NCBI RefSeq assembly: GCF_044704955.1
Contig: NC_091999.1
Span: 65,968,001 to 66,032,000 of the forward strand
Direction of reading: 5' to 3'
Length of the DNA stretch: 64,000 nt
From: Pristiophorus japonicus
Lineage: Eukaryota
The position numbers and the translations under genes are program-made. This document shows positions 6,400-58,150 of the stretch, one piece after another. The notes beneath the pieces are model-generated. The model saw nothing but the letters and a program-made list of their open reading frames with translations. It did no database searches and was not told where the DNA came from. Each line of letters opens with the position of its first letter. The stretch's first letter is position 1.

Positions 6400-6657
6400 T
6401 ATTTAAAACTGAGATGAGGAGGAATTTCTTCACTTGGAGGGTTGTAAATCTGTGGGATTCTCTGCACCAGAGAGCAGTGGAGTCTGGATCATTGAATATC
6501 CATGATTTTTGAGCGATAAGGGAATAAAGGGTTCTGGGGAGCGGACAGGGAAGTGGATCTCAGTCTATGATCAGACCAGTCATGATCTTATTGAATGGGG
6601 AGCAGGCTCGGGGGTTCGGGTAGCACGCTCGTGCTCCGATTTCTCATGGTCTTATGT
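6400..6657 (+). mobile_element. Short CR1 3' end
   Basis: FKTEMRRNFFTWRVVNLWDSL plus 3'UTR; absent from the paralog near 28285. Confidence 0.88.
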
Positions 6658-7065
6658 ACCCAGCATGCCCCACGGTGGAGAATGTGCCGCACCCAGACTA
6701 CATGTGCTCAGTGTGCAGGCGCGGTTTCTGGCTGTGTTTGGAGCATGCGCGGTGCGTGTAATGGCGGAAAAGACACGTTTTGTACAGGCTCCTCAGAAGT
6801 GGTCTTTTCAGCGGGATGGAGCAGAGTAATCACCAGCGGGTAGCCGGGGAGGCTGCATGAACAACCGGTGCACGCTGCAACCCCGGAATAATAAACGGAT
6901 TTTCTGTGGTGGCAGCTTCGGGGCTTTCTCCGGTCACAGGCCCAGGCTAACGGCGGCCATCTTGGTGCAGGAAGGCATGTTCACGCCGCCATTTTGATTC
7001 ACTGAGTCGCACAGCACTTGCGTGGCGATCTTTGTACAGGAACAAAGTGAATGATGTCATTGTCT
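6657..7065 (+). promoter_or_regulatory. CpG-rich ZNF promoter module, copy A
   Basis: ZNF143/Staf-like TACCCAGCATGCCCCACG at 6657-6674; YY1 motifs GCCATCTT (6956) and CGCCATTTT (6987); paralogs at 28288-28690 and 41320-41740. Confidence 0.7.
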
Positions 7066-7560
7066 GGAACTGAACCCAGCCAGAGTCAAGACTTTCAAGG
7101 GAGAGAAACCAGTGAGTGTAGAACTGAACCCAGCCAGAGTCAATACCTTCAGGGGAGGGGAACGAACTGAGTGTTGAACTGAACCCAGCAGGAGTCAGTA
7201 CCTTCAGGGGAGGGGAACAAGTGAGTGTAGAACTGAACCCAGCCAGAGTCAGTACCTTCAGGGGAGGGGAACCAGTGAGTGTAGAACTGAACCCAGCCAG
7301 AGTCAGTACCTTCAGTGTTGGGGAAGGAGGGGAGGGACGGAGGGCACCCAGTGATTGTAGAAATGACCCCAGCCAGAGACAGTACCATCAGGGGAGCAGA
7401 GGTAGGGGAACCAGTGAGTGCGGAACTGAAAACAGCCAGACTCAGCATCTTCAGGGGAGGTGGGGAACCAGTGAATGTCACCCTGAACGCAGCCACAGTC
7501 AGAACGTTCAGGGGATGAGAGGGACGGGAACCAGTAAGTGTAGAACTGAACCCAACCAGA
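7066..7560 (+). repeat. VNTR with 54-78 bp variable units carrying GTGAGT/GTAAGT
   Basis: Core gggaaccagtgagtgtagaactgaacccagccagagtcagcaccttcagggga; about 8-9 copies. Confidence 0.9.
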
Positions 7561-7771
7561 ATTGGTGGTGAAAACTTGGAGTGGAGCAGAAACAGTCTAG
7601 AAATGTGTGTTGATTTGGATTTCAGCACAGCAGGAGGGATAATGTGTGGGACAGGGATTTCCAGCTTTGGATGAAAAAGAGAGGAAAGAATGTTCCATGG
7701 AAACTAGATGTCTCTATCCTGAATTTGTGTCTTGTACTGAGAGTGATGAGTTTTGTTATCTCCTTTTACAG

Positions 7772-8636
7772 CGTATTAGAAGGGGAGATTTTCAGACAGG
7801 AATCACCAACCAAACATCGCATCAAGATCTGACAGAGTCAATCGATTCATCAGGACTTGAATATCATCGGCCTTTGAAAGTGGAAGGAGAAAATTTATCT
7901 GTTTGTCTGAACGAAAAGATTTCAATTATCAGTGTGACTGAAAAATCAGTGAGAAACAGACACCCGAGTGAGTGTTCCAGTGCACTGCCCGTGGAAAGAG
8001 TTTTAACCAGTTACACAGCCTGAAGAAACATCACACAATTCATAGCGCTGAGAAACTGTAAACGTGTTGTGTGTGGAAGAGGCTTTAACTGATCGTCCAA
8101 CCATGGACAGTCACAAGGATACCTGCACCATACAGAAACCGTGGGAATGTGGTGACTGTGGGAAGGTATTCAGATCACCATCTGAGCTGAAAATTCATCA
8201 ACGCAGTCACACTATGGAGAGGCCGTTCACCTCCGCTATGTGTGGGAAGGGTTTCACTCATTCATCCAACCTTGTAGCTCACCAGCGAGTTCACACAGGA
8301 TAGAGGCCATTCACCTGTTCTGATTATGGGAAGGGATTCACTCAGTCATCCACGCTGCTGACACAGCAGCGAGTTCACACTCGGGAGCGTTCGTTCACCT
8401 GCTATGAGTGTGAGAAGGGATTCACTTGTTCATCCCACCTGCTGAAACACCAGATAGTTCACACTGGGAAGAGACCATTCACCTGCTCTGAGTGTGGGAA
8501 GGGATTCACTCAATCATCCATCCTACTGACACACCAGCGAGTTCGCAATGGGGTGAGGCCATTCACCTGCTCTGAGTGTGGGAAGAGATTCACACAGTCA
8601 TCCCACCTGCTGACATACCAGCGAGTTCACAATTGA
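7772..8636 (+). pseudogene. C2H2 zinc-finger pseudogene (6 main fingers plus degenerate upstream fingers)
   Basis: Acceptor ttttacAG at 7770-7771; ATG 8103; [11 protein letters not shown] linkers; in-frame TAG at 8301; four of six fingers lack a zinc ligand; TGA at 8634-8636. Confidence 0.92.
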
Positions 8637-9140
8637 CTGCAGGGATTGGATTCTGCTGTTATTGAGGCTGTTAATCACATCTCGACTGAACCATGTTCAT
8701 TCTGACAGTTGGGGGTTGTTTCTGCTGATGTTAATATCCCTATAACTGGGCTGGACTTTAATATTCTGCTTATATTGCTGATTTTGTTCTCGGGGCTGCA
8801 GTGTCCTTTAAGAAACACTGTGGGTTATATTAACCCTTAATTCAGCAACTCTCAACAGAAATTTAGTTTACAATAAAATGGTGAACCTTTACTTTAATCC
8901 TACATTGATCTTTGGTACAAAATCTACAATATTGTGTGAAAGTTTCCACTGAATATAATCTCCAATTAGAAAGAGCTTGCTGACAATTCTTACTGACTTG
9001 CACATTACATAGAGTGGCCCCTCTATTATTCACCAGAAAGAAGGGGAATAGGAATTGATGGGGAATCAGTGTTCCCGAACGTTGTCCTTCCCGTGTGGTG
9101 TTGCAATCCCCTCGGCATGAGAATGCAGTCAAGTCCAGTC
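8637..9140 (+). other. Conserved ZNF 3'UTR and downstream block with AATAAA near 8872
   Basis: Paralogous to 43250-43720 and, inverted, to 56960-57260. Confidence 0.75.
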
Positions 9141-55650: not shown

Positions 55651-55859
55651 GTTCCTCTTCACAATACTCTGTCGTTCGCTATAAATATTCCGTCTGTAAT
55701 TTTGGTGAGGGGCTCTCCTCAACTAGTCTTCAATGTATCTTTATTTACAGACTCTCCCTGATTCACTTCCTATCCTGGAGTTTTCCTTGGGGTCGCTTTG
55801 TTGAGCTTCGGGCTGGAATGACGCAGGGAAAACTGGGAAGCTGCGGTTGAGGGGTAGAT

Positions 55860-56262
55860 AATGTTAGATACAGAATAAAACTTCCTTTACACTGTCCATC
55901 GAACAATTTCAGGGCAGGTACTGCACAGGTTAGATACAGAGATAATCTCACTCCATACTGTCTTATCAAACACTCCCAGGGCAGGGAGAGCACAGTTTGG
56001 AAAACAGAATAATGCCGCCTCTACACTGCCCCGTTAAACACTCCCCGGGCAAGTATAGCACACGTTATACACAGAGTAAAGCTCCCACTACACTGTCCCA
56101 TCAAACATTCCCAGGGCAGATACAGCAGGGGATTAGATACAGAGTAAAGCTCCCTCTACACTGCCCCATCAAATATTTCCAGGGCAGGTACAGCACGAAT
56201 TAGAAACAGAGTAAAGATCCCTCTACACTGTCCAAACAAACACTCTCAGAGCGGGTACAGCA
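55860..56262 (+). repeat. 67-68 bp tandem repeat, about 6 copies
   Basis: Same unit as 3620-4290. Confidence 0.9.
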
Positions 56263-56424
56263 GTGTAAAGACCTGAGGAAACCTCTCTTTTCGCATGAAA
56301 AGAATGCTGTGATTGCGTAATTATTTACACAAGAGGTCTCCATTACCCACATTCCCAACTTCCCATCAGACTGTTCACAGAGCAAAACCTTGCAAGAGAC
56401 TTCACAGCACTTACACTTACCGAT

Positions 56425-56940
56425 TGTCTCATATAAACCAACCCCACAGTCACTGACACCAATCCCCTCCTATCTGATAGAAACCCACCCCACAGTCACT
56501 GACACCAATCCCCTTCTGTCTGATATAAACCAACCCCACAGTCACTGACACCAATCCCCTCCTGTCTGATAAACCAACTGCACAATGACTGACACCAATC
56601 TCCTGTCTGATATAAACCAACCCCAGTCACTGACACCAGTCTGCTCCTGTCTGATATAAACCAACTCCACAGTCACTGACACCAATCCCCTCCTGTCTGA
56701 TATAAACCAACCCCACAGTCACTGATACCAATCTCCTGTCTGATACAAATCATCCACGCAGTCACTGACACCAATCCTCTCCTGTCTGATATAAACCAAC
56801 CCCACAGTCACTGATACCAATCCCCTGTCTGATACAAATCATCCACGCAGTCACTGACACCAATTCCCTCCTGTCTGATATAAACCAACCCCACAGTCAC
56901 TGACACCAATCCCTCCTGTCTGATATGAACCGACCCCACA
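56425..56940 (+). repeat. 46-bp minisatellite, about 11 copies
   Basis: Unit ataaaccaaccccacagtcactgacaccaatcccctcctgtctgat. Confidence 0.93.
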
Positions 56941-56959
56941 GGCCCAGAAGGATTGAACT

Positions 56960-58150
56960 CAGCCCGTTACTTGAATTGGATTGTCTCCATTCCGGTGCCA
57001 AGGAGATTGCTGTACCAGACGGAGGGGAAACATTTGGGACATTGATTCTCCACCAATTCCCATTTCCCTTCTTTCTGGTGGATAATGGAGGGGCCGCTGT
57101 GTGTAATGTGCAAGTCAGTGAGCATTGTCAGCAAGGATTAATCAGCACTCTCTAATTGAAGATGTGCATCAGTGAAACCTTTCAGTCACTGAATTGTAGA
57201 TTTTGTACCAAGGCTCAATTTAGGATTGAAGCAAAATTTTATAATTTTATTGCAAACACATTTCTGAAGGGAGTGCGGACGAAGGGTCATCGACCTGAAA
57301 CATTAACTCTGTTTCTCTCCACAAATGTTCCTGATCCGCTGAGATTATCAGCATTTTCTGTTTTTATTTCAGATTCCACGACAGAACATTTCAGGACGTG
57401 ACATTCCAGGATTCTCACAGAAAGAACAGACAAATATTTCACCTTCCACATTCACAGGCCGATTAAATCCAGGTCCTGATTAATCGAGTGAGACTGTCAG
57501 CTCTAACCGTGATGTTTGGTTCGAGTTCCCCGTCTGCATATCCTCCCCTTCTAATACGCTGTAAAAGGAGTTACAAAATACATCACTGTAAGTATAGGAT
57601 AGATATTTAGAACAGACAATTCTAGTTTCTATGGAACATTCTTTCCTCTCTTGTTCCCCCAAACCTGTAAAACCGTCCTACGCACTCTCCCTCCTCCCTG
57701 AGCAGAAACCAAAATCTATCGCACCATCTCCAACACTTCTTTCCTGAACTCCCAGTTTTCTCCCTCCCTCTGTTCTGGTTGGTTTCAGTTCTTCACCCTT
57801 CCGTGTGCAGAGTGAGAATAAAATCAATGAGTCAATGATTTTCTCTCCTGGCCACTGGGACCCTGAAGCCCCGCCCACTCTTCATTCCAGTACGAAGAAG
57901 GCTGCGCTGCAAGTGGAACCGTTCTCTCTTTCCTGCACTAAGATGGCTGTCCGTAACCCGGGCTTGTCACAGATAAAAAGCCTCAAGGGAGCCGTCCGAT
58001 GGAACAGACAACGGGCCGCTGGATCACTTTCAGGCCCTGAGGCTGTTCCCCAACTTATTAAATCGTGCGGCGCGGCCTACCAGCAAATTATTAATCACTC
58101 GCTCCCCCCCGTCCGTTTTATTTTCCTTGTGTTTTATTGCCCGCGTTGCT
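56960..58150 (-). pseudogene. Finger-less ZNF locus: promoter, intron, exon start and distal 3' block
   Basis: YY1-like AAGATGGC near 57941; GC box; conserved intron; acceptor at 57559-57561; exon start; then a Penelope-like fragment and a 3' block homologous to 8860-9140. Confidence 0.75.
57262..57380 (+). mobile_element. Penelope-like terminal fragment with a decayed minimal hammerhead ribozyme core
   Basis: cggacga-agggtc-atc-gacct-gaaac at 57276-57301, followed by ttaactctgtttctctccac...gcattttctgtttttatttcagattcca. Confidence 0.6.

Follow-up and report, generated by a model that had tools for sequence, protein, structure and literature searches.

Do the promoter-like modules of zinc finger (ZNF) genes that crowd a 64,000-nucleotide stretch of the Pristiophorus japonicus genome (contig NC_091999.1, positions 65,968,001 to 66,032,000; hereafter the window) each give rise to a minisatellite of their own? 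A preliminary description held that nearly every promoter does so. Our analysis instead finds each array tied to a cassette subtype and inherited through duplication, and we consider it probable that the window is a decayed copy of a KRAB-less C2H2 block present at no fewer than 68 places on contig C23, in which the arrays are passengers inherited with their subtype.

Modules and Arrays in the Window

The features of the window are listed below, with arrays delimited by Tandem Repeats Finder (TRF) where indicated; the motif names YY1-like and SBS/ZNF143-like are our own presumptive designations.

3548..64000 (+): decayed multi-gene ZNF segmental-duplication block, one copy, extending beyond the right end of the window
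6657..7066 (+): first exon and promoter of type A, carrying an SBS/ZNF143-like motif (6657), two YY1-like motifs (6956, 6988) and a decayed splice donor
7067..7560 (+): first-intron minisatellite of type A, 54-63-bp units (TRF)
7765..8631 (+): exon 2 of cassette A, with acceptor, fossil fingers and broken C2H2 array
10830..11343 (+): module B, a CCAAT/GC-box block without its own finger exon
11344..17856 (+): 41-bp satellite, 160 copies, between module B and promoter D (TRF)
17860..18355 (+): type D promoter, with a 45-bp duplication of the YY1 motif at 18125-18221
18356..18838 (+): 24-bp minisatellite of type D/G (TRF)
18936..19046 (+): finger remnant of cassette D
28284..28857 (+): type E promoter, paralogous to A; splice donor intact at ~28640
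28858..33308 (+): 27-bp minisatellite interrupted by a minus-strand LINE (remnant 28858-28898, main array 32954-33308)
34150..35825 (+): module F, with a 30-bp array (34349-34881) and a 38-bp array (35395-35825)
36356..36831 (+): exon 2 and broken fingers, likely of cassette E
41320..43249 (+): cassette C, with type A promoter, 58-bp array (41736-41977) and broken exon 2
45545..46104 (+): cassette G, a decayed D-type block with 24-bp array (45669-45816) and finger remnant
49400..50083 (+): type H CpG-island promoter with 37-bp array (49998-50083, 2.3 copies)
55183..55648 (+): remnant of an exon 2, perhaps from H, interrupted by an inverted 63-bp array (55468-55648)
57412..58160 (-): type I cassette without array, promoter module 57780-58160

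The type A promoter at 6657 shares 76-79% identity with the modules at 28284 and 41320. Twelve of the 14 matches to the YY1-like motif GCCATNTT in the window fall inside promoter modules, while a looser SBS pattern has two matches there and the strict ACTACA-type ZNF143 pattern none. All finger exons in the window are broken, and no cassette retains more than two intact fingers per open stretch.

TRF bears out the arrays previously reported behind the modules at 6657, 10830, 17880, ~34200, 41320 and 49410, and finds none after the minus-strand module near 57900 (57780-58160), which had been described as lacking one. The units are mutually unrelated as stated: of 78 unit pairs put to a shuffle test, only two had p ≤ 0.03, about the level of chance. 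The 27-bp array said to follow closely on the module at 28270 is a more complicated case. TRF reports no array within 600 bp, and only ~1.5 units stand at 28858-28898, the main array (32954-33308) being parted from the E promoter by a 4-kb insertion of a LINE that we take to be RTE-like. The remnant ahead of the LINE is present in all 39 copies of module E that were fetched, and therefore the E promoter and the 27-bp array were once adjacent.

The modules at 10830 and 34200 do not hold up as separate ZNF promoter cassettes: neither has a BLAST match to the other modules or a finger exon of its own, and their CpG observed/expected ratios (0.53 and 0.58) are not clearly above the window background. 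Because the next acceptor after module F lies at 36356, this module likely belongs to the intron of cassette E. Altogether the window contains 20 merged arrays, comprising 19% of its bases. Among them are two additional to those first described, a second 24-bp array behind the decayed promoter remnant at 45545-45816 and the inverted 63-bp array at 55468-55648.

Arrays Follow Cassette Subtype

The pairing of array and subtype is fixed across chromosomes. The 54-63-bp array is a type A feature throughout the family, and its 54-bp unit was found at 13 of 40 ZNF loci on other contigs versus 0 of 41 control loci. The other arrays likewise recur beside their own subtypes: the 24-bp array behind a D-type block on C20 (L146), the 27-bp array, there uninterrupted, on C9 (L133, L138), the 37-bp array with a type H promoter, again on C9, and the 41-bp unit in 3.7 copies next to module B on C22. 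In two other block copies the 41-bp satellite spans 13.5 and 12.5 kb, and module B is elsewhere found head-to-head with type H.

The preliminary description also called for a test of array enrichment near these promoters; enrichment is true of copies and uncertain for origins. Arrays lie downstream of 28 of 44 promoter blocks, compared with 4 of 46 sides of matched CpG islands bearing the YY1 motif (p = 4e-8), and are more frequent downstream (28) than upstream (11) of the blocks (p = 5e-4), so that array density beside the promoters is not equal to background at the copy level. By unit, however, the 28 downstream arrays comprise 18 of 54-63 bp, five of 37 bp, four of 24 bp and one of 30 bp. 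Promoter-array motifs that recur within a single window can stem from the copying of one duplication block, and copy counts therefore overstate independent origins. At the level of origins, approximately 4 of 10 lineages carry an array, a proportion that exceeds the rate at CpG-island controls (0.087, p = 0.008) and does not differ significantly from the local background of ~19% (p ~0.10). Given the strong excess at the copy level and at least four unrelated units in the same intron, the first intron of this family may be prone to making or keeping arrays.

A stronger form of this idea, that the first intron is a true hotspot which repeatedly makes minisatellites and retains them for tuning of expression, appears unlikely to us. 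On such an account the 54-bp unit would tune output through one donor-like (U1-binding) site per copy just after the start site, and indeed every unit of the array at 7067..7560 holds a donor-like GTGAGT motif, which occurs in the 54-bp unit alone among 13 units tested; matches of this unit to contigs from runs of other organisms, an array span that differs among 27 near-identical paralogues (577 to 1117 bp, a length variation observed between paralogues), and a count of unrelated units at one intron position that rises to five with the interrupted 27-bp array point the same way. Against it, besides the nonsignificant comparison with local background, 12 of the 20 arrays in the window start elsewhere than within 600 bp after any module, and dead cassettes also expand their arrays, as in the decayed cassette G, whose 24-bp array reaches 75 units in another block copy.

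Joined contigs also count against tuning. Contigs from three public runs of another organism, all from one study and of unrecorded kind, join exon 1 to exon 2 across the array, weak evidence that agrees with the first-intron position assigned to the arrays in the preliminary description. These contigs use a donor that precedes the array, and none of the 15 joints listed (of 54) connects an array unit with exon 2. Joints within the array or the fingers were left out as differences in repeat length. In the A clade, the donor and acceptor flanking the array are mutated. The best three public runs hold 0.39-0.47 of the words of an intact cassette, and among the matches listed no holder is recorded as RNA.

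We favor passenger status, with minisatellites that likely grow and shrink as they are carried along. Each array would have a single origin, through slippage or unequal exchange in the first intron of an ancestral subtype, and the 54-bp unit may derive from a segment of which array-less types have one copy; in the type I cassette the motif repeated in the 54-bp array is present once.

A Dispersed Block on One Contig

The window is colinear, at 84-91% identity, with two C23 stretches located 27 Mb apart, and the 10 kb following it (L040) include 4.3 kb that are 92% identical to one of these. Examined over 200 kb each, the two stretches lie in opposite orientation, are colinear with one another for ~150 kb at 88-99% identity, and present the modules in the same order as the window; a tRNA scan returned 0 and 1 genes. 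A 22-mer at the junction of module E (type E promoter, 28284..28857), used as a marker for the block, yielded 80 exact matches (41 on the plus and 39 on the minus strand) and its reversed control none. Sixty-eight of these are on C23 (14.2-66.0 Mb), scattered across 52 Mb in both orientations, one is on C31, and 11 are on nine small contigs. All 39 copies of module E that were fetched share the upstream array, the LINE insertion and the 27- and 30-bp arrays at 90-100% identity.

In these data the ends of the block are not fixed; its extent is variable and its copies are mosaic. A marker located 64 kb further right has the E marker 54-64 kb ahead in 11 of 23 C23 cases (random mean 0.57), while a marker 66 kb leftward pairs with E just 7 times in 33 and with H in 16 of 35 best matches. 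Of five stretches picked at random from the 14-66 Mb interval of C23, only one showed a match to block-specific sequence. As in the definition of an intrachromosomal segmental duplication, the copies exceed 1 kb at ≥90% identity and preserve the order of the unique, repeat and gene sequences they include, and repeated segmental duplication is the most likely route of spread. Blocks would have been copied to distant places in either orientation through non-allelic recombination between LINEs, satellites or earlier copies, with ZNF genes being born and dying inside them.

Copy number was taken from the assembly; no public run contained half the words of the searched stretch. Some copies in a tree of 40 are identical across 2.8 kb and may be haplotype duplicates or assembly errors, and 11 of the 80 marker matches sit on small unplaced contigs, which could suggest that most copies are artefacts (retained haplotypes or mis-scaffolded repeats) and the true number small. 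We regard this as very unlikely: 38 other copies have a median identity of 94.7% over the LINE segment, far past allelic difference, and form many well-supported clades; the two 200-kb stretches contain no N; and retained haplotypes would at most halve the count. Finally, that the block is a giant mobile element which captured zinc finger genes and makes local jumps along one chromosome is most improbable, since, despite a size above 100 kb, dispersal in both orientations and closest relatives in the tree often tens of Mb apart, its copies are mosaics of 88-99% patchwork identity and variable extent and are nearly confined to one contig. A Pfam search of 73 of 113 long open stretches (one copy plus C23 samples) likewise brought up neither transposases nor viral core genes; its matches were confined to fragments of reverse transcriptase, RNase H and integrase, one 7TM receptor and a TMEM55 exon.

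Gene Structure and Finger Diversity

Open frames persist in other block copies. All 30 nearest paralogues of one type A copy have an open frame beginning MEKPWK, with 10 fingers in 22 of them, and the family comprises at least 313 starts. The start codon lies six residues ahead of the first finger cysteine, and the tandem C2H2 array, with TGERP-type linkers, is contained in a single exon. The family is KRAB-less, as had been proposed, by gene structure and by Pfam, which finds only finger families in the MEKPWK-type protein and no KRAB either there or in four open stretches over the window promoters. Judged from gene structure, there is no coding room before finger 1 for a FiNZ or KRAB-like N-terminal domain. 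The predicted gene would thus consist of a non-coding exon 1, an array-bearing intron and one exon with its start directly ahead of the fingers, and its predicted product would be a DNA-binding protein without an effector domain. When the 280-residue protein was searched for homologues, the resulting list, ordered by length, consisted mostly of generic tetrapod ZNFs; the highest identity was 76%, to a stingray protein, which is in keeping with a shark-type origin without proving it.

Upstream of the start, an in-frame TGA is present 13 codons away at 26 of 40 distant loci. Stop-codon read-through was considered and rejected; frameshifts are common in this region even at loci with open fingers, and for this reason we read it as untranslated fossil fingers.

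In a set of 121 fingers drawn from 12 of 40 loci, variability is highest at helix positions -1, 3 and 6, with entropies of 3.28, 3.16 and 2.70 bits compared with 0.90 at position 2, a pattern that, at the level of sequence, would fit selected DNA-binding diversity better than pure drift. Across 24 of 30 young paralogues, pN/pS was 0.63, not different from 1 (25 non-synonymous and 12 synonymous changes; p = 0.24), with six non-synonymous changes to one synonymous at the contact positions.

Comparison with Known ZNF Clusters

Mosaic blocks arrayed along one chromosome in both orientations around a common gene-bearing core are familiar from the primate core duplicons (NPIP/LCR16a). In the C23 block a succession of ZNF genes and pseudogenes forms the core, and the copies are more numerous and older (≤9% apart). 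In the human 19p12 ZNF cluster, beta-satellite blocks were reportedly duplicated along with the genes (Eichler et al., 1998); that cluster reportedly involves one satellite family and KRAB genes, whereas the C23 block is KRAB-less and carries several unrelated, subtype-specific intron-1 arrays.

The mouse Chr4 KRAB-ZNF cluster underwent large segmental duplications of three to seven ZNF genes that carried transposons along (PMC12575710). It shares with the C23 block these multi-gene duplications and transposon passengers, the mixture of genes with pseudogenes, and differing finger arrays (PMC12575710). In contrast, the C23 block has no KRAB exon, is spread over 52 Mb rather than forming one compact cluster, and has LINEs and minisatellites as passengers instead of ERVs.

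Zebrafish 4q, in a fish without KRAB-ZNFs, likewise concentrates tandem ZNF genes in one chromosome region, with hundreds of lineage-specific FiNZ-ZNF genes (10.1101/2022.11.29.518450; PMC10547256). For FiNZ genes, the authors report an exon encoding an N-terminal domain, positive selection, and transposon repression supported by knock-down (10.1101/2022.11.29.518450; PMC10547256). In the C23 family, the start lies six residues before the first finger cysteine.

Tandem ZNF expansions are thought to follow transposon load across animals, and the literature we found treats tetrapod KRAB, ray-finned-fish KRAB-like and FiNZ families, cartilaginous fishes being little covered. An effector-less family within a chromosome-scale amplicon provides a tangible case in which to ask whether ZNFs serve to control transposons in sharks, and by what means a ZNF without such a domain would repress. 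One could speculate that a third, effector-less tandem-ZNF defence system operates in cartilaginous fishes and that a one-chromosome battery of it has been amplified here, with donor-like intron-1 arrays serving as length-coded output dials. This is a long shot in our estimation; if true, transposons would be silenced or blocked by the proteins either through binding alone or with the help of an unknown partner, and the battery would occupy most of one chromosome in parallel to zebrafish 4q.

In the literature searched, which included few subscription papers and no supplements, we found no description of a shark ZNF amplicon or of ZNF first-intron minisatellites. The words shark, cartilaginous and chondrichthy- are absent from the main text of both versions of the FiNZ paper (10.1101/2022.11.29.518450; PMC10547256); shark ZNF counts may be given in the genome tables of PMC10547256.

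Promoter modules and cassettes in the window

Seven broken zinc-finger (ZNF) cassettes (A, D, E, C, G, H and I) were recognized in the window from acceptor and finger-remnant positions, none of them with more than two intact fingers per open stretch. The features around them are as follows.

6993, 18210, 28630, 41661 and 49903: sites matched by a profile of the common promoter block
10830, plus strand: module B, without a finger exon
34200, plus strand: module F, likely inside the intron of cassette E
57900 (near), minus strand: module without an array behind it
3938-4239, 40491-41250 and 55863-56263: 67-bp array, often immediately 5' of A-type promoters (elsewhere at 7/40 distant ZNF loci vs 0/41 controls)
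19819-20022 and 46963-47168: inverted intron-exon 2 junction remnants, 3' of cassettes D and G

Tandem Repeats Finder bore out the preliminary description for the minus-strand module and placed an array immediately after each of the seven plus-strand modules except 28270, where the 27-bp array lies 4 kb off and a LINE insertion separates it from a 1.5-unit remnant kept in 39/39 fetched copies. The array units of the modules are, as had been described, unrelated to one another. The proposal of one repeated promoter-ZNF cassette holds in part: modules 6657, 28284 and 41320 are 76-79% identical across 400 bp, a shorter block is common to modules 17880, 45545, 49410 and 57900, and the five profile-matched sites, being matched by one common block, represent one ancestral 5' region, but modules 10830 and 34200 match no other window module.

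A large block dispersed along C23

The window (C23:65.97-66.03 Mb of a 5.92-Gb genome) is one decayed copy of a large duplicated block. Used as queries, modules E, H, B and A each gave at least 40 matches, those listed being mostly on C23; every one of the 39 fetched E copies runs colinear with the window and contains its LINE and arrays. A 22-mer at the E junction, present in 36/39 of these copies and used as the block marker, has 80 exact matches: 68 on C23 (14.2-66.0 Mb; 35 plus, 33 minus; median gap 572 kb), one on C31 and 11 on nine small contigs. Over ~150 kb, two oppositely oriented C23 stretches (62.9 and 35.8 Mb) align colinearly at 88-99% identity, with A, B, D, E, F, C, G, H and I following one another as in the window. 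Block extent differs between copies: A lies 13-38 kb before the E marker in 29/34 cases and H 20-25 kb after it in 16/35, and far-right and far-left markers are paired with it in 11/23 and 7/33. Since block-specific sequence was matched in one of five random C23 stretches within 14-66 Mb, the block occupies part of C23, not the whole.

A tree of 40 copies, built on a 2.8-kb LINE segment (median identity 94.7% in 38), has strong support on 26/37 inner branches, and sister copies are often tens of Mb apart; identical copy pairs may be assembly duplicates. The sister of the window is the C31 copy, and the kinship possibly reflects exchange between chromosome ends. This copy, at C31:1.36-1.41 Mb near the contig start, is 96-98% identical to the window's block.

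Arrays follow cassette subtypes and exceed background at copy level

Arrays were counted at a period of at least 15 and a score of at least 80, finger repeats being excluded and overlapping arrays merged, which gave 20 merged arrays covering 19% of the window. An array starts within 600 bp on a given side of a random point in 380/2014 local tests (0.19) and in 199/3322 (0.06) in 11 stretches from other contigs; the high local background fits the greater abundance of simple tandem repeats on short shark chromosomes and chromosome ends reported in the available part of 10.1101/2022.10.17.512540. For 44 promoter blocks, drawn from the window, from 90 other loci and from two 200-kb stretches, an array lies downstream in 28 and upstream in 11 (p 5e-4), and 28/44 compares with 4/46 sides of 23 YY1-motif CpG islands (p 4e-8), the controls being the 23/30 loci that passed an island and no-cassette filter. 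The predicted enrichment over CpG islands was thus recovered.

The 28 arrays are not independent cases. They comprise four units (18 of 54-63 bp, five of 37 bp, four of 24 bp and one of 30 bp), each tied to a cassette subtype, which does not support the claim that nearly every promoter spawned its own array. A rough origin-level count from promoter-block clusters gives ~4 origins among ~10 lineages (p 0.10 vs local background, p 0.008 vs CpG-island controls). Given the small copy-level p and these origin-level values, the association of arrays with the promoter block is real, and intron 1 of the family may have a modest tendency to gain arrays.

The pairing extends across the genome. A 32-base family start motif has 313 exact matches, with clusters on C2, C9 and C20 (40 on C9, 39 of these at 202-229 Mb); 90 of the first 100 listed are on C1-C22, so that the remaining 223 fall on C23 or later contigs. 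Of those 90 loci, 40 were sampled as distant loci, and the 54-bp unit occurs in 13/40 vs 0/41 controls, mostly ending ~550 bp 5' of the start codon. A 24-bp array lies behind a D-type block on C20, 27-bp and 37-bp arrays lie behind E-type and H-type blocks on C9, and on C22 the 41-bp array is found next to B. Types D, G and I each carry one copy of the motif that the 54-bp array repeats, which suggests growth of the array from an intron segment. Array length differs between paralogues, ranging over 577-1117 bp among 27/30 near-identical A copies, from 4.5 to 40.6 units at A-type promoters and, for the 41-bp array, from 6.5 to 13.5 kb.

Zinc-finger genes

In the young A clade, sampled as the best 30 matches to one intact A copy (98-100% identity), 30/30 have an open frame starting MEKPWK (155-280 residues), 22/30 with 10 fingers, and 18 distinct proteins differ by shuffled finger order. 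Pfam returned finger families and nothing else on the intact A-copy protein, in agreement with the family being KRAB-less. A homologue search with the 280-residue protein, in which the highest identity among the matches listed was 76% to a stingray protein, points together with the repeat families to a probable shark-type genome. The 5' part of exon 2 (window 7770-8130 and homologous sites in L111-L150) carries three fossil fingers before the start, with two recurring in-frame TGA codons, the nearer in 26/40 distant loci, and is likely untranslated. The first donor is CT, not GT, in 21/21 matched young copies and the acceptor AT, not AG, in 29/29; with pN/pS at 0.63 (p 0.24), the frames may be open because the copies are young and not because they are selected. 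The most variable finger positions across 12 distant loci are -1, 3 and 6.

For the claimed first-exon or first-intron position of the arrays, contigs from three public runs of another organism (X19-X21; one study, kind unrecorded) connect the YY1-motif region with exon 2 across the array, with 23-26 letters on the short side; the much larger run X22 has the unjoined form, and the 15/54 joints shown include none of this kind. This lends weak support to a spliced, array-containing first intron in a relative's paralogues. On C3, C4 and C7, single copies (L120, L123, L124, L129, L130) whose family match begins shortly 5' of the start codon resemble 5'-truncated retrocopies.

Proposed mechanism and related systems

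The observation in the preliminary description was thus partly confirmed and its interpretation partly supported. Most likely, each array would have arisen once per subtype in intron 1, been passed on as genes and blocks were duplicated, and changed freely in length, dead copies included. The block is duplicated and its arrays are paired with subtypes; copying along C23 would likely have proceeded via non-allelic recombination, and we infer that the arrays were passengers, any function being conjectural.

The human 19p12 ZNF cluster, in which satellite blocks were reportedly duplicated with the genes, is among the closest cases to the C23 block. The others are the mouse Chr4 KZFP cluster, described in the available text of PMC12575710 as growing by segmental duplications of 3-7 genes plus their transposons, and, from the accessible parts of 10.1101/2022.11.29.518450 and PMC10547256, the FiNZ-ZNFs on zebrafish chromosome 4. 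The available portions of 10.1101/2025.06.08.657570 and 10.1101/2025.03.13.642935 do not mention a ZNF amplicon, and those of PMC11603059 and PMC8455134 agree that cartilaginous fishes are without KRAB-ZNFs except PRDM9.

Other regions

A second concentration of ZNFs at C9:202-229 Mb (L132-L141), where look-alike pairs are separated by several Mb (L135/L139, L133/L138, L132/L140), may be another amplicon. H-type and B/A-type blocks lie head-to-head in L133 and L138 and at L045:8614-8967, an arrangement that fits a bidirectional promoter. On C23, an exon-sized TMEM55A match at 6.0 Mb (L193:3054-3470) indicates that the first Mb hold ordinary genes among dense arrays. At 31.0 Mb, L196:7698-8660 holds an open 321-residue rhodopsin-family 7TM frame adjoining a 35-bp satellite; 35-bp arrays are also present in L195, L198 and L199, and together with 3.8 kb common at 94% to L195 and L198, 35 Mb apart, they hint that a second block is dispersed on C23.
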